From Moraxella nasovis (GTDB taxonomy: Bacteria; Pseudomonadota; Gammaproteobacteria; Pseudomonadales; Moraxellaceae), in NCBI RefSeq assembly GCF_022701215.1, contig NZ_CP089976.1:1380001-1412000 (forward strand): 32,000 nucleotides of DNA, written 5' to 3'. Under the pieces are notes generated by a model. That model did no database searches. It worked only from the letters and a program-made list of their open reading frames with translations, and had not been told where the DNA came from. Positions 3-29,197 of the stretch are shown piece by piece. Every line of letters starts with the position of its first letter. Position 1 is the stretch's first letter. The position numbers and the translations under genes were made by a program.

Positions 3-203
3 TTGCCTACTATTGGCGGGTTTTATTTTACAACCAAAGCCGTAGAATTGGGTGAGGCAAGTAAAGTGCAAATTATAGAAACAAGCGACCCACTTTTTGC
101 CACCTTATTTGCGTTTATATTTTTTGGTGATTTGTTAGGATTTTATGGTTACATTGGTGCTTTATTGATATTTGTTGGGCTTTTGACCTCAATTAAATCA
201 TAA
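3..203 (+). CDS. DMT/EamA-family permease, C-terminal fragment (5' end outside the window)
   Basis: The ORF runs in from the left edge. Its hydrophobic TM-rich tail (LFATLFAFIFFGDLLGFYGYIGALLIFVGLL) is typical of the second EamA repeat. Confidence 0.55.
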   Translation: MPTIGGFYFTTKAVELGEASKVQIIETSDPLFATLFAFIFFGDLLGFYGYIGALLIFVGLLTSIKS

Positions 204-258
204 AGTTTATTTTTGAGTATATCTCAACCCAACCGCCCCAATCTCATTGGTGGCATAA

Positions 259-1296
<1,038 letters not shown>

Positions 1297-1367: not shown

Positions 1368-1802
1368 ATGAATAATTTTGATGTAAGTATGTTGGCTATC
1401 TCCTTGGGTTATTGGGAAAAAGCGTATATTGTGGCAAGTTTGATCGTTGCGGTGATGATTTGGATAGAAGCGACCATGCTAAGTTGTAATGACGGCAAGC
1501 TACCAGAGCAAGTGGGATTTATGATGGTGAGTATGATTACATCATCATGGCTTGTGATATCTGGACTTGCTTTGTGGTTCTTAGAATTTGACAGCTTTGC
1601 GATGGCTGTGCCTGTGATGTATGGGGTGTACTCGGTATTAGGCTGGTTCTATGGTGCTAAACTTATGGCTAAGACAGATGTTCCAGATAATCCAGCTGAT
1701 TTTGTGGTTCCTGCCAAATATCTTGTGTTTTCTAAATCTTTTGCCATTGCGTTCGCCATTTTATCAATCTTTGTCTTATGTACGACCTATTTTATACCAT
1801 GA
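1368..1802 (+). CDS. Hypothetical small integral membrane protein (about 4 TM helices)
   Basis: 144-aa ORF with four long hydrophobic segments. I recognise no family. Confidence 0.55.
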   Translation: MNNFDVSMLAISLGYWEKAYIVASLIVAVMIWIEATMLSCNDGKLPEQVGFMMVSMITSSWLVISGLALWFLEFDSFAMAVPVMYGVYSVLGWFYGAKLMAKTDVPDNPADFVVPAKYLVFSKSFAIAFAILSIFVLCTTYFIP

Positions 1803-1936
1803 TAAGGATGAGCTAGATATGCTCATTTTAATCGTATAGATTGTGTTTGTGATAGTGCCTGAAGTCCTAAAATAAAGTTGTTAGCAAGATTATTTTAATT
1901 TTTTTTGAAAAAATAATCCCCAAACGGGATAAATTT

Positions 1937-1945: not shown

Positions 1946-2175
1946 AGGCGTATGGTATTTATGTACCGCTGTAAGTTTAGACTAAAATCATGGTTTTGTG
2001 CTAATGCACCGTTTCCATGACAAGGCAGTGATAGTCAAGGCGTTTTTGAAAGCCTTTTTGGTGAGTGAAAAATGGGGCAACCCAACGTCTGTATCTTGTT
2101 TTATACATTCAGCAACATGAATGGCATTCATAGACGTTAGTCGTCTTAATTTTCAACTCATTTAGGAATTATCTC

Positions 2176-2388
2176 ATGTCAAACAAAGTTCAAGGCACTG
2201 TAAAATGGTTTAACGAAGCAAAAGGCTTTGGTTTTATCGCTCAAGACAACGGCGGTCAAGACGTATTTGCTCATTTTAGTGCTATCTCAGGTTCAGGTTT
2301 TAAAACTCTTGCCGAAGGTCAAAAGGTTTCTTTCATTCTTGGTGAAGGCCCTAAAGGTCTACAAGCCGAAGAAATCGAAAAAATCTAA
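2176..2388 (+). CDS. cspA: Cold-shock protein, CspA family
   Basis: 70-aa ORF with RNP1/RNP2 motifs KGFGFI and VFAHFS, and an AGGA SD upstream. Confidence 0.94.
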
Positions 2389-2405
2389 GTTTATTTGATT
2401 TAAAA

Positions 2406-2429
2406 ACACCGCTTTTTGCGGTGTTTTTT
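2406..2429 (+). terminator. Rho-independent terminator after the cold-shock gene
   Basis: Perfect 7-bp stem acaccgc/gcggtgt with loop ttttt, followed by ttttt. Confidence 0.75.
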
Positions 2430-2621
2430 ATGCCGATAAAAAAAATATACCAAAAAAAATGACTTGCCGTTCACGTTAATCGTTTGCTCAATTGGTACTT
2501 ATTTTGCAAAATAAATCTTAAGCGGATAAGTATCCTGCTTGCGAATGATTTGAAACTATTTACAAAACAGCGTGTAAATGATATAAAGAAAGGCGTACCC
2601 ATAATAAATTACGGAGCTATC

Positions 2622-3371
2622 ATGAAAGTATTAGTTGCGGTAAAACGTGTTGTTGATCACAACGTCAAAGTGCGTGTCAAGGCAGATGAATCTGGCATGG
2701 AGCTTGCCAATGCCAAGATGAGCATCAATCCATTTTGTGAGATTGCCATTGAAGAAGCGGTTCGCCTAAAAGAAAAAGGCGTGGTGAGTGAGATTATTGC
2801 TGTGTCTGTTGGCACGACCCAAGCCCAAGAACAACTGCGTTCAGCGATGGCACTTGGTGCTGATCGTGGTATTTTGGTTCAGACAGACGAAAAGCCATAC
2901 CCACTACACGTCGCCAAAATCCTAAAAGGCGTGGCAGAGTCAGAAGATGTGCCACTTATCTTGCTTGGCAAGCAGGCGATTGACGATGATAATAATCAGA
3001 CAGGGCAAATGCTCTCAGCACTCATGAACGCATCACAAGGCACATTTGCATCGCAAGTTGTGGTTGATGGTGAAAAGGTGCAAGTTACTCGTGAGATTGA
3101 TGGGGGGTTGCAGACGGTTGAACTGACCTTGCCTGCGGTGATTACCACCGATTTACGCCTAAATGAGCCACGTTTTCCAAAATTACCAAACATCATGGCT
3201 GCCAAGAAAAAACCATTAGACATCAAAACGCCTGCCGACTTTGGTGTGGACATGAGCTCTAAATTGACTACATTAACAGTCAAAGCACCTGCCGAACGTG
3301 GTGCTGGCGTGAAAGTGGCAAGCGTTGATGAGCTGATTGACAAACTACGCAATGAAGCAAAAGTGATTTGA
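2622..3371 (+). CDS. etfB: Electron transfer flavoprotein, beta subunit
   Basis: [19 protein letters not shown] is the canonical EtfB N-terminus, and ACGGAG SD lies just upstream of the ATG at 2622. The track ORF starts at 2484, which adds a non-homologous 46-aa extension. Confidence 0.93.
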
Positions 3372-3516
3372 TGCCTGCTTAGGCGAATGGTGTTTGAGAC
3401 TAGGCGTATTTGATGACATGAATATTGATTTGAATATGAAGTCGTCTGTTGAGACAGCCCAATGAGCCACATCAAGCAAAACCACATAAAAATAAACCAA
3501 ATAAAAGGATAATACA

Positions 3517-4446
3517 ATGACTGTACTGGTGTATGCCGAACATGATAATACTGAACTAAAACCTGCCACGTTGTCTGCCATTACCGCAGCAAGCCAAATT
3601 GATGGCGATGTACACGTTTTGGTGGCAGGGGAGAATGCCCAAGCTGTCGCAGATAGTGTCGCTCAGGTCGCTTTTGTGAGCAAGGTTTTGTTGGCGGATA
3701 ACACAGCGTTTGCCAATCAGCTTGCGGAGAATATTGCCCCTGTGGTTGTTAATCTTGCGGATAATTATACGCACATCATCGCCCCTGCCACAACCACTGG
3801 CAAGAACTTTTTGCCACGTGTGGCGGCGTTATTGGACGTGAGCATGATATCAGACATCACAGCGGTGATTGATGCTACGACCTTTGAGCGTCCGATTTAT
3901 GCAGGCAATGCCATTGCAACCGTCAAGACTGCCGAAGATAAAGTGATACTGACGGTGCGTGCCACTGCCTTTGATATGGCAGTCATAGGCGGTAATGCCA
4001 GCATTGAGCGTGTGTCATTGGGTGGCGATACAGGCAAATCATCTTTTGTTAAAGAAGAGCTTGCCAAATCTGACCGTCCTGAATTGACATCAGCGGACAT
4101 TGTGGTATCTGGTGGTCGTGCGTTGGCAAGTGGTGAGAATTTCACCAAATACATTGAACCGCTTGCTGACAAATTGGGTGCTGCGGTGGGAGCAAGCCGT
4201 GCGGCAGTCGATGCAGGATTTGTCCCCAATGACCTACAAGTGGGGCAAACTGGTAAGATTGTCGCACCAAACCTATACATCGCTTGTGGTATCTCAGGGG
4301 CGATTCAGCATTTGGCGGGTATGAAAGACTCAAAAGTCATCGTGGCGATTAACAACGACCCAGAAGCACCGATTGCACAGGTGGCAGATTATTTCTTGGA
4401 AGCGGATATTTTTACCGCACTGCCAGAGCTGACCCAAAAGCTATGA
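3517..4446 (+). CDS. etfA: Electron transfer flavoprotein, alpha subunit
   Basis: 309-aa ORF with AAGGA SD. The FAD-binding C-terminal region reads VVSGGRAL...[11 protein letters not shown]...[29 protein letters not shown]. Confidence 0.95.
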
Positions 4447-4499
4447 CCTAAAAACCATGACCTAAGCTTTATGAGTTGCTATTAAATTTAGTATAAAAG

Positions 4500-4525
4500 A
4501 CGCACTTAAAAACGGTGCGTTTTTT
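4500..4525 (+). terminator. Rho-independent terminator after etfA
   Basis: Stem acgcac/gtgcgt with a 9-nt loop, followed by tttttt. Confidence 0.55.
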
Positions 4526-4594
4526 GTGGGTGATGATCTGGCAGGTGTTGCTTTGGGGGCTTGATTTTGTGTAGATGGATTTTTTAGAAATTAA

Positions 4595-4648
4595 GGTTTG
4601 ATAATTAAGGTGTGTAATTATGGTTTGATAATTATGGTTTGATAATTA
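4595..4648. repeat. Three copies of ggtttgataatta (two tandem with a 14-bp period, one 27 bp upstream)
   Basis: Exact copies at 4595-4607, 4622-4634 and 4636-4648. The last copy overlaps the stop codon of the minus-strand methyltransferase gene. Confidence 0.8.
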
Positions 4649-5422
4649 AGTAAAATTTCTTTGGCGTAGCATTTCATATAAACACACCGACCCTGCCACA
4701 CCCACATTTAGGCTTTCTTGACCGTTTGGTTGGGGTAGGGCGATGGCGGTGGCAAGGCTCAAAAATTCATCACGCACGCCTTGTCCTTCATGTCCTAGTA
4801 CCCATGCAATCGGCTTACGCAAATCATGATGATAGATGACCTTGTTGGTGTGCGAGCTTGTGGCGTATAGCGGTGTTTTGACCTTAGCCAAAATCTCATC
4901 GGTGCTGACCTGCTCATGGATAGATAAGGCAAAATTCGCCCCCATGCCAGCACGCAGACACTTGGGCGACCACAGATGGGCGGTGTGCGGTGTGGTAATA
5001 ATTGTAGTAATGCCAACAGCCGATGCCGTGCGAAGTAGCGTGCCGATATTGCCCGCATCTTGTAAGCCGTCTAGTATCATGCAGTCATCTGTAACTGTCC
5101 CAAGTGGGGGTGTAGGGGTATCAATGACTGCCATGATGTCCACGCCATCGCCTAGGGTGCGGATTTGTTTATACAGGCTGTCTGTGATTGTGATGATGGC
5201 GTGTGTTGGAATTTTATTAAGTAAATCAATGACTTCTATGTAATTACACGCACTTTGGCTGACGATGACCTGATGGGGTGTCAAGCCTTGCTTTAATAAT
5301 GCGTCTAATAAATGCACGCCTTCAATCACTGTCTGACCGCTTTTTTTGCGGTGGCGGTGATTGGTGAGTAGGGTGTGGGCGTGGCGGATGGTGGGATTGG
5401 TGGGGGAGGTGATTGGGTTCAT
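4646..5422 (-). CDS. SpoU/TrmH-family RNA 2'-O-ribose methyltransferase
   Basis: SPOUT motifs LDGLQDAGNIGTLLRTA, WVLGHEGQGV and IALPQPNGQESLNVGVAGSVCLYE. I placed the start at MNPITSP (5422). The upstream ATG at 5476 is possible but would overlap the neighbouring ORF. Confidence 0.85.
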   Translation of the reverse strand: MNPITSPTNPTIRHAHTLLTNHRHRKKSGQTVIEGVHLLDALLKQGLTPHQVIVSQSACNYIEVIDLLNKIPTHAIITITDSLYKQIRTLGDGVDIMAVIDTPTPPLGTVTDDCMILDGLQDAGNIGTLLRTASAVGITTIITTPHTAHLWSPKCLRAGMGANFALSIHEQVSTDEILAKVKTPLYATSSHTNKVIYHHDLRKPIAWVLGHEGQGVRDEFLSLATAIALPQPNGQESLNVGVAGSVCLYEMLRQRNFT

Positions 5423-23734: not shown

Positions 23735-25266
<1,532 letters not shown>

Positions 25267-25328
25267 ACGATATTATCTGATTGGCAAGAATTCACAACAA
25301 GTTGTTCTTTGGAAAGATGTTTTAAAAC

Positions 25329-25405
25329 GGGTCTATAGCTCAGTTGGTTAGAGCACCGTGTTGATAACGCGGGGGTCATAAGTTCAAGTCTTATTAGACC
25401 CACCA
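25329..25405 (+). tRNA. tRNA-Ile (anticodon GAU)
   Basis: 77 nt with a cloverleaf fold: acceptor gggtcta/tagaccc, anticodon loop ttGATaa, T-arm ataagttcaagtcttat, and encoded CCA. Confidence 0.98.
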
Positions 25406-25414
25406 TTAACACAT

Positions 25415-25490
25415 GGGGTTATAGCTCAGTTGGTAGAGCGCCTGCCTTGCACGCAGGAGGTCAGGAGTTCGACTCTCCTTAACTCCACCA
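25415..25490 (+). tRNA. tRNA-Ala (anticodon UGC)
   Basis: 76 nt: acceptor ggggtta/taactcc with the G3:U70 identity pair, anticodon loop ttGCAc (TGC), and encoded CCA. Confidence 0.98.
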
Positions 25491-25736
25491 TTAAAACATC
25501 AATAAGCATACATAAGCAATTTAAATAAGATTTCTTATTTATGCTTTAACTTTATAAACTGACGAAGTTTATATCATTATTTAACAACATATTATGAGTC
25601 TGGGTTAATTATTTATTCCAACAAATAATTAACCATGGTGATTATACCCAATATAATCACCTAAAAGTAAAGAGAACTGAATCAAGCGTAAACATAGGTA
25701 AATCGTTACAATCATTCTCATACATCACAAGTAAGT

Positions 25737-25756
25737 AAAACTACTTGGGGTTGTAT
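25737..25756 (+). other. 5' flank of the 23S precursor processing stem (25737-25763 pairs with 28917-28944)
   Basis: aaaactacttggggttgtatggtcaag pairs with cttgaccatacaacacccaagtggtttt, giving 27 pairs with one bulge and one G-U. Confidence 0.6.
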
Positions 25757-26272
25757 GGTCAAGTAATGAAGTGCACATGGTGGATGCCTTGGCAGTCAGA
25801 GGCGATGAAAGACGTGATAGCCTGCGATAAGCGTCGGTGAGGTGGCAATATCCTGTGACCCGGCGATTTCTGAATGGGGAAACCCACTTATCATAAGATA
25901 GGTATTCTATCCTTTGGATAGAAGGCAAACCGGGAGAAGTGAAACATCTCAGTACCCCGAGGAAAAGACATCAATAGAGATTCCGTAAGTAGCGGCGAGC
26001 GAACACGGAGGAGCCGATCAAATTTACAGTAGCAAAATGGCGTGGGAAAGCCAACCATAGTAGGTGATAGTCCTGTATGCGAAACTGTTTATACGACATA
26101 TTAAGTAGGGCGAGACACGTGAAATCTTGTCTGAAGATGGGGGGACCATCCTCCAAGGCTAAATACTCCTGACTGACCGATAGTGAACCAGTACCGTGAG
26201 GGAAAGGCGAAAAGAACCCCTGTTAGGGGAGTGAAATAGAACCTGAAACCGTGTGCATACAAGCAGTCGGAG

Positions 26273-26595
26273 CCCGACCACTTAATCGTTTTGAGGATAG
26301 CATGAACTTTTACTACGTCTATGTCATACAAAATGTGAATAATCATGATGAGTTTTATACTGGTTTTACTACCAACTTAAAACAAAGAATTGATTCACAT
26401 AATGGTGACAATACCTACTCAACCAGAAGTAGAACATGGCGTATTGTTTATTGTGAAGCCTATATAAATGAGCAAGTGGCAAGAAAGCGAGAGCGAGACA
26501 TTAAAAATAATGGTCGCACAAGAACTTTCTTAATGAACCGCATTAAATCGCAGTTTGATACTGATGTATCAACACAGAACGATTAAGTGGTCGGG
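26273..26595 (+). other. 23S rRNA intervening sequence (IVS) replacing the tip of helix 25
   Basis: Canonical 23S sequence runs up to ...caagcagtcggagc and resumes at gtgacggcgtaccttttgtataatgggtcagcg. Where E. coli has a ~12-nt hairpin tip, there are 321 nt here. Perfect 18-bp inverted arms, cccgaccacttaatcgtt (26273-26290) and aacgattaagtggtcggg (26578-26595), bracket the insert. The interior is much more AT-rich than the surrounding rRNA. Confidence 0.85.
26302..26586 (+). CDS. GIY-YIG nuclease-domain protein (YhbQ/COG2827-like, 94 aa) encoded inside the 23S IVS
   Basis: GAGGA SD (26293-26297) lies 4 nt before the ATG. MNFYYVYVIQNVNNHDEFYTGFTTNLKQRIDSHN...WRIVYCEAY...ARKRERDIK carries the GIY (YVY) and YIG (YTG) strands, the conserved Arg/His helix and the catalytic-Glu region. 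The stop codon lies inside the right arm of the IVS stem. Confidence 0.75.
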   Translation: MNFYYVYVIQNVNNHDEFYTGFTTNLKQRIDSHNGDNTYSTRSRTWRIVYCEAYINEQVARKRERDIKNNGRTRTFLMNRIKSQFDTDVSTQND

Positions 26596-27096
26596 TGACG
26601 GCGTACCTTTTGTATAATGGGTCAGCGACTTATATTCTGTAGCAAGCTTAACCGTTTAGGGGAGGCGTAGGGAAACCGAGTCTTAATAGGGCGACTTAAG
26701 TTGCAGGGTATAGACCCGAAACCGAGTGATCTATCCATGAGCAGGTTGAAAGTGCCGTAACAGGCACCGGAGGACCGAACCCACTGTCGTTGAAAAGCCA
26801 GGGGATGACTTGTGGATAGGGGTGAAAGGCTAATCAAACTCGGTGATAGCTGGTTCTCCCCGAAAGCTATTTAGGTAGCGCCTCGGACGAACACCATTGG
26901 GGGTAGAGCACTGTTTCGGCTAGGGGGTCATACCGACTTACCAAACCGATGCAAACTCCGAATACCGATGAGTGATATCCGGGAGACAGACGGCGGGTGC
27001 TAACGTCCGTCGTCAAGAGGGAAACAACCCAGACCGCCAGCTAAGGCCCCAAATTCCTAGTTAAGTGGGAAACGATGTGGGAAGGCACAGACAGCT

Positions 27097-27148
<52 letters not shown>

Positions 27149-27937
27149 AGTCGAGTCGGCCTGCGCGGAAGATGTAACGGGGCTCAAACTAGGAGCCGAA
27201 GCTGCGGATTTAATTGTTTCAATTAAGTGGTAGGGGAGCGTTGTGTAAGCCTGTGAAGGTGTATCGTAAGGTATGCTGGAGGTATCACAAGAGCGAATGC
27301 TGACGTGAGTAACGACAAAACGGGTGAAAAGCCCGTTCGCCGGAAGACCAAGGGTTCCAGTCCAACGTTAATCGGGGCTGGGTGAGTCGACCCCTAAGGC
27401 GAGGCCGAAAGGCGTAGTCGATGGGAAATTGGTTAATATTCCAATACTTGTTTATGATGCGATGGAGGGACGGAGAAGGTTATGTCAGCCTGGCGTTGGT
27501 TGTCCAGGTGAAAGGATGTAGGTAGGTTTAGTAGGCAAATCCGCTAGACTATTACTGAGATCTGACAGCAAGCCAATTTATTGGCGAAGTGGCAAATACC
27601 ATGCTTCCAGGAAAAGCTTCTAAGCGATAGTCTTAAACAAATCGTACCCGAAACCGACACAGGTGGTCAGGTAGAGAATACCAAGGCGCTTGAGAGAACT
27701 CTGCTGAAGGAACTAGGCAAAATGGTACCGTAACTTCGGGAGAAGGTACGCTGCTGATGGTGATAAGACTTGCTCTTTGAGCTATTGGCAGTCGCAGATA
27801 CCAGGCTGCTGCAACTGTTTATTAAAAACACAGCACTCTGCAAACACGAAAGTGGACGTATAGGGTGTGATGCCTGCCCGGTGCTGGAAGGTTAATTGAT
27901 GGGGTTAGCGTAAGCGAAGCTCTTGATCGAAGCCCCA

Positions 27938-28019
<82 letters not shown>

Positions 28020-28422
28020 TGATGGCAGCGCTGTCTCCAGCAGAGACTCAGTGAAATCGAAATCGCAGTGAAGATGCTGTGTACCCGCGGCTAGACGGAA
28101 AGACCCCGTGAACCTTTACTACAGCTTTACATTGAACTTTGACCTAACTTGTGTAGGATAGGTGGGAGGCTTTGAAGTGTGAACGCCAGTTTGCATGGAG
28201 CCAACCTTGAAATACCACCCTGGTTATGTTGGGGTTCTAACTTAGATGTAACAACATCAAGGACAATGTATGGTGGGTAGTTTGACTGGGGCGGTCTCCT
28301 CCTAAAGAGTAACGGAGGAGTACGAAGGTGCGCTCAGAACGGTCGGAAATCGTTCAAAGAGTATAAAGGCAAAAGCGCGCTTAACTGCGAGACCCACAAG
28401 TCGAGCAGGTACGAAAGTAGGT

Positions 28423-28498
<76 letters not shown>

Positions 28499-28554
28499 AC
28501 CGCCCAAGAGTTCATATCGACGGCGGTGTTTGGCACCTCGATGTCGGCTCATCT

Positions 28555-28605
<51 letters not shown>

Positions 28606-28772
28606 AGGTACGCGAGCTGGGTTTAGAACGTCGTGAGACAGTTCGGTCCCTATCTACCGTGGGCGTTGGAAATTTGAGAGGATCTGCTCCTAGTACGAGA
28701 GGACCAGAGTGGACGAACCTCTGGTGTTCCGGTTGTTTCGCCAGAAGCATTGCCGGGTAGCTACGTTCGGAT

Positions 28773-28809
<37 letters not shown>

Positions 28810-29081
28810 CTCAAGATAAGATTTCCCTAAAGAGCCGTTGTAGACTACGACGTTGATAGGTTGGGTGTGGAAGCATGGTGACATGTGTAGCTAACCAATA
28901 CTAATTGCTCGTTTGGCTTGACCATACAACACCCAAGTGGTTTTGTATGATTAAAGTGTAAAGATTTTACCTAACAAGCTTGATAAAGAATATATCTTGA
29001 AGTAAATTTAATAAAGATTAAATCAATTTAATAAATTAAATTTAAATAAAAACAGACTCATAATCGTTGTTAATCCTTTTA

Positions 29082-29197
29082 CGCTGACGACAATAGCAAG
29101 ATGGAACCACCTGATCCCTTCCCGAACTCAGAAGTGAAACGTCTTAGCGCCGATGGTAGTGTGGTTCGCCCATGTGAGAGTAGGTCATCGTCAGCAC
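29082..29197 (+). rRNA. rrf: 5S ribosomal RNA
   Basis: Conserved ccgaactcagaagtgaaac and gcgccgatggtagtgtgg blocks, with terminal helix gctgacga/tcgtcagc. Ends are accurate to 2-3 nt. Confidence 0.95.

Follow-up and report, generated by a model that had tools for sequence, protein, structure and literature searches.

The 23S rRNA gene and its insert

The window, a stretch of 32,000 nt from the genome of Moraxella nasovis (contig NZ_CP089976.1, positions 1,380,001 to 1,412,000), contains one rrn copy, arranged in the order 16S, tRNA-Ile, tRNA-Ala, 23S and 5S, and its 23S was recognized by Rfam as a complete bacterial LSU rRNA (Table 1). Alignment to E. coli rrlH showed that this 23S is collinear with its counterpart up to position 540 and again from position 550, i.e., on either side of the tip of helix 25, where an insert of 323 nt takes the place of the terminal stem-loop. 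Without the insert, the M. nasovis 23S measures 2846 nt. Rfam detected no intron family overlapping the insert, and a group I intron is thereby ruled out. The GC content is 0.35-0.39 in the insert, compared to 0.45-0.55 in the remaining 23S, and no sigma-70-like promoter match was found in 25700-27000. These results agree with an earlier reading made from the letters of the window only (the sequence-only reading), which had placed an AT-rich minigene lacking a promoter of its own in helix 25.

Table 1. Coordinates of the rrn operon of the window and of the insert in its 23S rRNA gene.
Feature	Position	Strand	Remark
rrn operon	23735-29196	+	supplies transcription to the insert
16S	23735-25266	+	rrn operon of the window
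tRNA-Ile	25329-25405	+	rrn operon of the window
tRNA-Ala	25415-25490	+	rrn operon of the window
23S rRNA gene (host of the insert)	25757-28925	+	Rfam RF02541, 2805 bits, model positions 1-2925
Left arm of closing stem, GCCCGACCACTTAATCGTTTTG	26272-26293	+	outer part is the family motif CCCnnCAC
Intervening sequence (cassette)	26273-26595	+	blastn and MAFFT mapping to E. coli rrlH
Shine-Dalgarno-like GAGGA	26293-26297	+	4 nt 5' of the ATG
ORF for a 94-aa protein, predicted minimal GIY-YIG (Slx1/UPF0213-type) nuclease, stop included	26302-26586	+	Pfam PF01541
Right arm of closing stem, CAGAACGATTAAGTGGTCGGGT	26575-26596	+	outer part is GTGnnGGG
5S	29083-29196	+	rrn operon of the window

The insert is bracketed by two 18-nt arms of perfect complementarity (26273-26290 and 26578-26595), as the same reading had noticed, and the pairing reaches even further, to 21-22 bp, when G-U pairs are included (26272-26293 with 26575-26596). 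In the predicted fold of the region the stem is closed (MFE -106.8 kcal/mol, z = -7.7 relative to shuffled sequences). An intervening sequence (IVS) is expected to carry a stem of at least about 20 bp at its ends, and that of the window insert is 22 bp. The M. nasovis insert is a helix-25 IVS with an RNase III-type stem. IVSs in helix 25 or helix 45 of the 23S rRNA occur in Salmonella, Yersinia, Campylobacter, Leptospira and Coxiella, where they are excised by RNase III without religation, and the ORFs described in them encode four-helix-bundle proteins of the S23p (23S_rRNA_IVP) type, PF05635.

The encoded protein

The insert carries an ORF whose ribosome-binding site has a GAGG core complementary to the 3' end of the 16S rRNA (...CACCTCCTTA), and whose TAA stop (26584-26586) lies within the right arm, together with the last three sense codons. 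The ORF, the spacing of its Shine-Dalgarno (SD) sequence and the buried stop codon had all been read correctly from the sequence. A Pfam search of the 94-aa protein returned PF01541 (GIY-YIG) at 48.5 bits (cut-off 22.6; E 1.1e-12), in accordance with the identity first proposed from its motifs, and gave no match to PF05635 at E <= 1, which rules out an S23p-type protein. An NCBIfam scan matched no family. The window's protein was missing from the protein collection that we searched, likely because gene callers skip ORFs within rRNA genes.

In sequence searches the nearest entries were 1zg2 and SLX1. The AF2 model (pLDDT 86) has a beta-alpha GIY-YIG fold, for which Foldseek returned 1zg2, 7cq2, 4xm5, 6seh and 7wme at probability 1.0; the best matches were UPF0213 and Slx1 proteins, and UvrC (1yd4) appeared only at rank 47. 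Residues Y7, Y19, G21, R29, H33 and E64 are 99-100% conserved among 85 unique relatives. Pfam found the catalytic domain alone, and at its C-terminus the modelled chain has a single helix and a disordered tail. Judged by sequence and modelled fold, the protein belongs to the minimal, structure-specific Slx1/UPF0213 lineage and not to the I-TevI or UvrC lineages. The sequence-only reading had cautioned that a domain lacking a DNA-binding extension makes a doubtful homing enzyme; Pfam, sequence and predicted fold uphold that caution, and a catalytic-only domain of 94 aa is unlikely to act as a sequence-specific homing enzyme.

[quoted passage not shown] The M. nasovis protein shares with them a catalytic core of ~90 aa without further domains, and the motif set YxY...YxG...R...H...E. 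However, those genes have been treated as ordinary chromosomal genes of unassigned function, whereas the clade of the M. nasovis protein resides within stable-RNA genes, bracketed by conserved arms. Our search of the literature on YhbQ, UPF0213 and COG2827 found no paper tying the family to stable-RNA genes.

Conservation in Moraxella

M. nasovis shares the IVS with M. catarrhalis, M. caprae, M. atlantae and about four further lineages, and its site is identical in the independent assemblies of M. caprae DSM 19149 and M. atlantae NBRC 14588. One variant was recovered from 21 Logan contigs, and further copies occur in several ENA and JGI metagenomes. This recurrence rules out an assembly chimera, one of the objections that the sequence-only reading had raised against itself. 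Another, that relatives might carry a decayed ORF, is answered by the Moraxella-type variants (n = 8, those of M. catarrhalis, M. caprae and M. atlantae among them): each of the eight has an uninterrupted ORF of 88-97 aa and retains its SD motif, and pairwise dN/dS is 0.06-0.26 at dS values of 0.3 to >2. Since the reading frame is uniformly intact and dN/dS is this low, the comparison indicates a functional gene, not a fossil, and purifying selection of such strength implies production of the protein. Within the genus, the IVS could be of old age and passed on vertically, which would fit both the saturated dS and its occurrence in two species so distant from each other, M. atlantae and M. catarrhalis. 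No paper on IVSs or fragmented 23S in Moraxella turned up in our literature searches.

A cassette family in stable-RNA genes

Relatives of the ORF were found well beyond helix 25. All nine homologs recovered by word search lie within rRNA, as do four of four additional top HMM matches, the latter in 23S. Among the matches listed by a scan of genome contigs (at least 50 stretches) were M. caprae, M. atlantae and distant free-standing genes; M. nasovis itself and M. catarrhalis were not among them, and we draw no conclusion on absence from this list. About 50 of 80 metagenome loci are inside 16S or 23S on the rRNA strand, although the stable-RNA fraction is biased upward because this sample was seeded with rRNA-borne proteins. 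The 23S sites (E. coli numbering) are 540/550, ~1866/1875, 2790/2808, 130/157, ~650 and 2088/2225, and those of the 16S are 181/220 and 439/494, plus the 16S leader; they include helices 25, 68 and 98, among others, in 23S, and helices 10 and 17 in 16S. RNase P RNA hosts three copies, and six or seven adjoin tRNA genes on the same strand. The remaining copies lie between co-oriented ORFs; a permissive Rfam search and ARAGORN, run around copies not yet assigned to an RNA, yielded a single stable-RNA case, the RNase P RNA of L093. Orientation is sense in every stable-RNA case. A search of viral contigs yielded no relatives, and hence no sign of a phage vector.

The arms accompany the ORF. In 67 of 88 unique elements it is bracketed by inverted repeats of 14 bp or more, compared to 4 of 264 shuffled sequences. 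The aligned arms yield the consensus nCCCnnCACTnA / TnAGTGnnGGGn, with compensatory changes at 20 of 20 pairs, the percentage of arm pairing being partly circular because the arms were chosen as best inverted repeats. Most copies conserve the outer stem sequence CCCnnCAC / GTGnnGGG; elements range from 266 to 333 nt, where the stem is clear, the stop codon is in most cases found 5-14 nt into the right arm, and many copies bury start or stop codons within the stem. Since most copies are bracketed by a stem with conserved outer sequence, comparison of the copies indicates that the stem belongs to the cassette, ORF and arms forming one promoter-less unit of ~300 nt. An extension of the host helix is ruled out as the origin of the stem by the occurrence of the same motif in relatives at different sites and in unrelated host RNAs. 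The window insert is one lineage of this widespread family. Because the same cassette is found in rRNA, in RNase P RNA and beside the tRNA genes of many bacteria, it looks like a little-studied mobile element living in stable-RNA genes.

Some copies show signs of insertion at the DNA level. In tRNA contexts, duplications of the tRNA 5' end, of 11, 12, 17 and 20 nt, flank the copies, and one copy has an 84-nt repeat. Long direct repeats occur only in these tRNA-context copies and in copies with duplicated arms; no fixed-length target-site duplications were seen at rRNA sites, where 9-nt repeats proved to be ordinary rRNA sequence. In a rough neighbor-joining tree of the proteins, insertion sites are interleaved. 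IVS similarity is uncoupled from similarity of the host 23S: L001 and L011 show flank identities of 98.8% but IVS identities of 79-81%, and for L017 the flank and IVS identities are 87% and 83%. A few copies are decayed (L067, L097 and L094), as expected of a selfish element.

Comparison with described systems

RNase III excision of IVSs has been documented, and the S23p ORF of the Coxiella IVS is degenerating and apparently not expressed (PMC4990558). The Moraxella insert resembles the known helix-25 IVSs in occupying the same tip and in having a long complementary stem around an AT-richer insert, and by analogy a fragmented yet functional 23S would be expected. It differs from them in that its ORF encodes a GIY-YIG protein, not PF05635, with an SD sequence and under strong purifying selection, and in that its stem sequence is conserved as part of the cassette, which also occurs outside rRNA.

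The sequence-only reading was not aware of a described helix-25 IVS encoding a GIY-YIG protein. The combination is not unprecedented, since 30 GIY-YIG ORFs have been counted in non-intron rRNA insertions of CPR bacteria (Tsurumaki et al. 2024, PMC11270868), and that paper cites Brown et al. (2015) for CPR non-intron rRNA insertions encoding GIY-YIG proteins. The window insert has the same attributes, i.e., an rRNA insertion of at least 100 bp with no group I or group II intron and a PF01541 ORF, in a Moraxella instead of a CPR host, and the two groups also share insertion into 16S and 23S at several scattered sites. However, the CPR work (PMC11270868) gives counts without anatomy and covers CPR hosts only, whereas the present host is a cultured gammaproteobacterial genus. 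The arm motif, the fixed geometry of start and stop codons, the purifying selection, the RNase P RNA and tRNA contexts and the flanking duplications are new beyond those counts.

With the homing genes of rRNA group I introns (LAGLIDADG) and of phage introns (I-TevI class) the cassette shares a nuclease gene inside an intervening sequence, the removal of which at the RNA level makes insertion into a conserved, highly expressed RNA tolerable. Unlike them, it has no ribozyme, no religation and no DNA-binding domain, and its GIY-YIG lineage is a different one; the hallmarks of the I-TevI class, namely a C-terminal DNA-binding domain, a self-splicing intron and relatives in viral contigs, were all absent. 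MITEs and integron cassettes with attC hairpins are likewise short, promoter-less, bounded by conserved inverted repeats and co-oriented with host transcription. This resemblance is one of analogy only, as the present cassette has its own nuclease, arms on both sides of the ORF and no integrase or known transposase.

Proposed mechanism and alternatives

We lean, by a modest measure, toward a mobile IVS cassette consisting of a nuclease gene and its own arms and co-transcribed with the host RNA. The insert would be transcribed within the rrn precursor, a step supported by the sense orientation of every stable-RNA case and by the lack of a promoter-like site. The 22-bp stem would then form and be cut by RNase III, as in the IVSs of Salmonella and Coxiella, removing the insert and splitting the 23S, which would stay functional, into fragments of about 0.52 kb and 2.33 kb. 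The ORF would be translated from its own SD, on either the precursor or the released RNA, to yield a nuclease predicted to be active from its conserved catalytic set and presumed to serve the spread or maintenance of the cassette at the DNA level. Because of the Slx1/UPF0213 lineage, its action would most likely be structure-specific cleavage, with a hairpin or cruciform formed by the arms, or empty target hairpins, as possible substrates, as opposed to I-TevI-like homing. On this reading, the cassette has moved repeatedly among the hairpin tips of stable RNAs and other co-transcribed positions. Several observations count against mobility: the duplicated tRNA ends differ in length, unlike classical target-site duplications; the 94-aa domain has no obvious DNA-targeting module; a purely selfish homing gene does not usually stay under purifying selection long after it has become fixed; and we know of no GIY-YIG transposase. 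That the Slx1-like enzyme itself makes the ~300-bp element autonomous, by cleaving hairpins or cruciforms in its own arms and/or in hairpin-forming targets within strongly transcribed stable-RNA genes, is a proposal we offer tentatively and hold to be rather unlikely, although it would explain both the variable tRNA duplications and insertion at the helix tips of rRNAs (16S, 23S) and of RNase P RNA.

The strong purifying selection over saturated synonymous divergence, with the ORF intact in all Moraxella-type variants, would also be expected if the nuclease had been domesticated and benefited the cell, e.g., by Slx1-like resolution of replication-transcription or recombination intermediates at heavily transcribed rDNA, in a dose tied to rRNA synthesis by its position within the rrn transcript. 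Eukaryotic Slx1 maintains rDNA (PMC1564403), and M. catarrhalis has four identical rrn operons and a 23S numbering consistent with an insert in the reference gene. However, the cassette occupies many unrelated sites and host RNAs, including duplicated tRNA flanks, operon gaps and RNase P RNA, and is absent from most bacteria, and element-specific conserved arms and occasional decayed copies are what a mobile element shows and a housekeeping gene does not; we judge domestication unlikely. Classical homing, the leading idea of the sequence-only reading, in which the protein would cut IVS-less helix-25 rDNA and repair from an IVS-bearing rrn copy would spread the insert, appears more doubtful still. 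There are homing endonucleases among the GIY-YIG enzymes, homing into rRNA genes is a classic case, and helix-25 copies occur in hosts whose 16S are only 86% identical to that of the window (L030, L032, L034, L036 and L097), but the protein amounts to a catalytic core without a DNA-binding extension, Slx1/UPF0213 proteins are nearest in both sequence and fold (with UvrC far down the fold ranking), and close protein relatives sit at many sites whose flanks have no sequence in common. Moreover, these sites are variable helix tips and thus poor conserved targets, a point on which the authors of the CPR study likewise doubted classical homing (PMC11270868).

The conservation of the outer, non-coding arm sequence across hosts and sites is not explained by RNase III recognition alone. 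Together with the burial of start or stop codons in the stems of many copies, it would suit a role at the RNA level, in which the protein binds or cleaves the stem RNA for self-processing, protection of the released mRNA or translational autoregulation. To our knowledge, however, no GIY-YIG enzyme acts on RNA. Although a prokaryotic member of the Slx1 family is fused to a TrmH-like RNA methyltransferase (PMC1564403), RNase III is nearly universal in bacteria and is enough for the known IVSs (PMC4990558), and we regard such a role as highly improbable. The degenerating and apparently silent S23p ORF of Coxiella (PMC4990558) sets a precedent for an inert relic, i.e., a decaying passenger, but the low dN/dS, the conserved catalytic residues and SD, and the uniformly intact Moraxella-type ORFs oppose this, just as the many independent assemblies oppose an artefact; the chance of either is close to nil.

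The spread of IVSs and the function of their ORFs have posed a standing question since the 1990s, and here the IVS ORF encodes a recognizable enzyme under clear selection in cultivable hosts. A single armed cassette in 16S, 23S, RNase P RNA, tRNA flanks and operon gaps points to a ribozyme-free strategy for living in stable-RNA genes, parallel to that of introns with homing endonucleases. If mobilization of ~300 bp by a GIY-YIG enzyme were true, the cassette would be among the smallest autonomous mobile elements known and would represent an unrecognized transposable or homing class with a GIY-YIG 'transposase', providing the first mechanistic account of IVS spread. Since the ORF encodes an enzyme and a close copy is carried by M. 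catarrhalis, a human pathogen for which genetic methods are established, the question is directly testable. The M. catarrhalis homologue is 90 aa in length (predicted peptide, e.g., IVYCEAYINEQVAR) and 87% identical to the product of the window's ORF. The 23S numbering of this species, which fits an insert within the reference gene, is offset by ~272 nt from that of E. coli (e.g., in the macrolide-resistance mutation A2330T), probably as a result of the insert.

A GIY-YIG cassette in the helix-25 tip

IVSs at helices 25 and 45 of the 23S rRNA are well established, as is their excision by RNase III, and the ORFs described in them are of the S23p type (PF05635). The window holds a single, complete rrn operon as annotated with Rfam, and alignment of its 23S rRNA with E. 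coli rrlH showed the two to be collinear as far as position 540 and from position 550 onward; the extra sequence between these points is at the tip of helix 25. Two proteins encoded in the window are exact matches to Moraxella nasovis (genome of 2.03 Mb). The sequence-only reading had placed an insert at this helix and described perfectly complementary 18-nt arms (26273-26290 and 26578-26595), an ORF (26302-26586) encoding 94 aa, a GAGGA Shine-Dalgarno (SD) motif 4 nt upstream of its start, a TAA stop within the right arm, and an AT-richer interior; this anatomy was correct throughout. Counting G-U pairs, the stem extends to 22 bp (26272-26293 and 26575-26596), and it stayed closed when the region was folded (-106.8 kcal/mol, z = -7.7 versus shuffles). 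The GAGG core of the SD is complementary to the 3' end of 16S rRNA, and GC content is 0.35-0.39 in the insert versus 0.45-0.55 in the remainder of the 23S rRNA. No match to a sigma-70-like promoter was found within 25700-27000. The cassette would be transcribed as part of the rrn precursor, and its stem would be an expected substrate of RNase III, whose cut, by analogy with known IVSs, may yield a two-piece 23S rRNA.

The encoded nuclease

In Pfam, the ORF product matched GIY-YIG (PF01541) at 48.5 bits (cut-off 22.6), with a second, weaker match to T5orf172 and none to PF05635, and NCBIfam likewise returned no family; the profile check thus upheld the nuclease identification made from sequence. 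Its closest solved structures by sequence are UPF0213 BH0048 (1zg2) and SLX1. An AlphaFold2 model (pLDDT 86) has a beta-beta-alpha-beta-alpha-alpha core, and the top Foldseek matches of the model were UPF0213, Slx1, and At-HIGLE (probability 1.0), with UvrC first appearing at rank 47. Since sequence and model lead to the same relatives, the protein is the minimal, stand-alone form of the Slx1 family (Dunin-Horkawicz et al., 2006; PMC1564403). An I-TevI-type homing enzyme was rejected because of this Slx1/UPF0213 lineage and the absence of a DNA-binding extension. Residues Y7, Y19, G21, R29, H33, and E64 are 99-100% conserved among 85 unique proteins, and the protein is probably an active nuclease.

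Arms as part of the cassette

Of 88 unique elements, 67 have the ORF enclosed by an inverted repeat of 14-29 bp, versus 4 of 264 shuffled controls reaching 14 bp; arm-to-arm length is 266-333 nt. Where a clear stem flanks the ORF closely, the distance from the end of the left arm to the start codon is at most ~26 nt, and the arm sometimes includes this codon; in most such copies the right arm includes the stop codon, 5-14 nt in. The arms could be aligned across sites and host RNAs (consensus left nCCCnnCACTnA..., right ...TnAGTGnnGGGn), and an outer motif, CCCnnCAC on the left and GTGnnGGG on the right, recurs at various sites in rRNA, within RNase P RNA, beside tRNAs, and in operon gaps (the window and homologous loci L029-L106). 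Double-sided compensatory changes were present at all 20 aligned arm pairs, and slid controls fell to ~40% pairing; since the arms were chosen as inverted repeats, the percentage paired is partly circular, but the compensatory pattern and the common motif are not. Because the outer motif is common to unrelated sites and host RNAs, these comparisons indicate that the stem is part of the cassette rather than of the host helix. Moreover, coding constraint does not explain arm conservation, since it is strongest in the outer part, past the stop codon. SD-like tetramers precede 32 of the 88 starts (~10% expected).

Host RNAs and insertion sites

A metagenome scan seeded with the IVS-protein alignment yielded 80 loci, which were placed by blastn against the window and E. 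coli rRNAs. In ~50 of these the ORF lies within an rRNA gene, every time on the rRNA strand. The helix names in the table are those that we take to correspond to the E. coli numbering and are approximate except for helix 25. Some hosts in the helix-25 group have 16S rRNA just 86% identical to that of the window, and some have very divergent 23S rRNA. An unbiased HMM search (9074 matches at E below 1e-3) placed all four further top matches in 23S rRNA, three at helix 25 and one at helix 68. As the seed was derived from rRNA, both fractions hold for this clade and not for COG2827 proteins at large. The rrn leader copies (L051, L057, and L066), which have identical 23-bp arms, and a copy at the 23S 5' end (L061) lie close to the stems at which RNase III naturally processes pre-rRNA. 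One 16S rRNA (L100, 1354-3875) has two insertions: the cassette, in the helix-10 region, and a group I intron (Rfam RF00028, 3060-3875) close to the 3' end.

Of the loci that lack rRNA nearby, three carry the element within RNase P RNA; we know of no described protein-coding insertion in this RNA. Several others directly adjoin tRNA genes of the same strand, on the 5' or 3' side or between two of them, the tRNA itself being intact. In all four copies located 5' of a tRNA, a duplicate of the tRNA 5' end (11, 12, 17, or 20 nt) precedes the cassette; a repeated 23-nt stretch and, in L102, an 84-nt repeat of the tRNA 3' part plus downstream sequence were also found. Unlike classical target-site duplications, these repeats vary in length. 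The remaining loci are short gaps between co-oriented ORFs (L055, L089, L064, L103, L092, L098, L070, L003, and L005), where many copies have conserved arms and the start codon is sometimes within the left arm. The general pattern seems to be that the cassette lacks a promoter and shares the orientation of host transcription. In a Levyibacteriota MAG (L006), a free-standing, distant GIY-YIG gene is preceded, at ~2.8 kb, by a LOOT RNA (RF03000, 67.6 bits; 1054-1163) that is probably unrelated to it.

Positions of rRNA and tRNA genes, insertion sites (E. coli numbering), and features of homologous loci
Locus or RNA	Feature	Position	Strand	Remark
Window	16S rRNA	23735-25266	+	Rfam
Window	tRNA-Ile, tRNA-Ala	between 16S and 23S	+	Rfam
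Window	23S rRNA, 3169 nt	25757-28925	+	Rfam
Window	5S rRNA	29083-29196	+	Rfam
23S	insertion site	540/550		helix 25; majority of copies
23S	insertion site	~1866/1875		helix 68 tip
23S	insertion site	2790/2808		helix 98
23S	insertion site	130/157
23S	insertion site	~650
23S	insertion site	2088/2225
16S	insertion site	181/220		helix 10
16S	insertion site	439/494		helix 17
16S leader	insertion site	~100 nt upstream of 16S 5' end
L093	RNase P RNA; element	2261-2871; 2469-2773		5' and 3' RNA parts align well on either side
L065	element in RNase P RNA	1618-1924		arms in place of P3 hairpin, directly before GAGGAAAGUCC
L095	element in RNase P RNA	~88-345		arms in place of P3 hairpin, directly before GAGGAAAGUCC
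L072	direct repeats, tRNA-adjacent	811/1135
L086	direct repeats, tRNA-adjacent	447/756
L090	direct repeats, tRNA-adjacent	1253/1597
L091	direct repeats, tRNA-adjacent	139/465
L102	direct repeats, tRNA-adjacent	2414/2777
L004	direct repeats, tRNA-adjacent	3924/4271
L011	extra block after stop	3268-3352
L018	extra block after stop	1602-1661
L021	extra block after stop	1653-1715
L038	extra block after stop
L067	truncated ORF	974-1129
L097	truncated ORF	2631-2756
L094	truncated ORF	1200-1424
L087/L088	truncated ORF
L027	23S rRNA	1954-5110

The best-supported reading is that of a promoter-less cassette, consisting of the ORF and its arms, that resides in loci that are transcribed, most of them into stable RNAs. 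Non-intron rRNA insertions with GIY-YIG ORFs are already known from CPR bacteria, in which Tsurumaki et al. (2024; PMC11270868) counted 30 such ORFs after earlier work by Brown et al. (2015), so the window insert is not wholly without precedent. In the open-access literature, we found no paper on a Moraxella IVS of the GIY-YIG kind, on Moraxella 23S rRNA fragmentation, or linking UPF0213/YhbQ-type proteins to stable-RNA genes. What is new is a cultured host genus with M. catarrhalis among its species, evidence of selection on an IVS ORF, a cassette with conserved arms, and its reach into RNase P RNA, tRNA, and operon contexts.

Selection on the ORF in Moraxella

The 94-aa protein itself was not found in a collection of 15 billion proteins, of which a word search returned only nine homologs; we infer that it is missing because gene callers mask rRNA. 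All nine lie inside rRNA genes: seven in Moraxella-like 23S rRNA, at the helix-25 site of the window insert (including M. caprae DSM 19149 and M. atlantae NBRC 14588), one in a divergent 23S rRNA, and one (50% identity) in helix 10 of 16S rRNA. In a scan of species-representative genomes, M. nasovis and M. catarrhalis were not among the matches listed (at least 50 stretches), although the ORFs of both fit the search patterns, so that absence from this listing carries no information.

In eight distinct Moraxella-type IVSs, the ORF is always intact (88-97 aa), the SD does not differ, and the arms are almost identical, T/C at left-arm position 17 covarying with A/G on the right-arm side. Pairwise Nei-Gojobori dN/dS was 0.06-0.26, with dS from 0.3 to saturation. 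The decayed ORFs that the sequence-only reading had named as the mark of a fossil were not seen among these eight, and an inert relic is excluded by the selection data. In contrast, the S23p ORF of the Coxiella IVS is decaying and apparently not made in vivo (PMC4990558). Since selection on the Moraxella-type ORF demands it, the ORF would be translated, from either the precursor or the excised RNA.

Hints of mobility and a proposed role for the nuclease

Several observations, the duplicated tRNA ends among them, point to mobility of the cassette as DNA. Insertion contexts were interleaved on a rough NJ tree, and IVS similarity does not follow host similarity: compared with the window, L017 has an 87% identical 23S flank and an 83% identical IVS, while the flanks of L001 and L011 are 98.8% identical and their IVSs just 79-81%. 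Several helix-25 copies (L011, L018, L021, and L038) have an extra 60-70 nt past the stop and read left arm, ORF, right-arm-like, left-arm-like, and right arm, with a short loop between the two arm-like parts and 5 nt between the second of these and the right arm; in effect, an ORF-bearing hairpin is followed by an empty one. The IVSs of L001 and L011 share 96% nucleotide identity and differ by exactly one 69-nt block of this kind, which also alters the C-terminal tail of the protein. In a few rRNA-embedded copies the ORF is truncated (41-74 aa); these copies, some of which retain intact arms, appear to be decaying cassettes.

Given the lineage of the protein, the conservation of the arms, insertion at hairpin tips, and duplications in the flanks, we favor a role in which the nuclease would serve spread or maintenance of the cassette by structure-specific DNA cleavage. 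Classical, sequence-specific homing is weakened by the lack of a DNA-binding domain and by how varied the insertion sites are. Purifying selection on the ORF, together with the parallel between Slx1 and rDNA, lends support to a rival reading, a domesticated nuclease engaged in rDNA maintenance, and a role at the RNA level, with the nuclease acting on the conserved stem, is a further rival to structure-specific DNA cleavage.

The M. catarrhalis IVS

Protein P0007, named [quoted passage not shown] by NCBI, matches residues 1-54 of P0001 exactly, and on this identity the IVS variant of L009, L010, and L027 is assigned to M. catarrhalis. We take A2330 of M. catarrhalis 23S rRNA to be the equivalent of E. 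coli A2058, which maps to position 2332 of the L027 23S rRNA, within 2 nt of the clinical "A2330T" numbering; given that equivalence, the ~272-nt numbering offset of M. catarrhalis 23S rRNA is probably due to the insert. The A2330T macrolide-resistance mutation was called on NR_103214.1, in a species with four identical rrn operons (PMC5075928). In NCBI, the M. catarrhalis IVS ORF is annotated solely in the form of partial proteins from tiny contigs.
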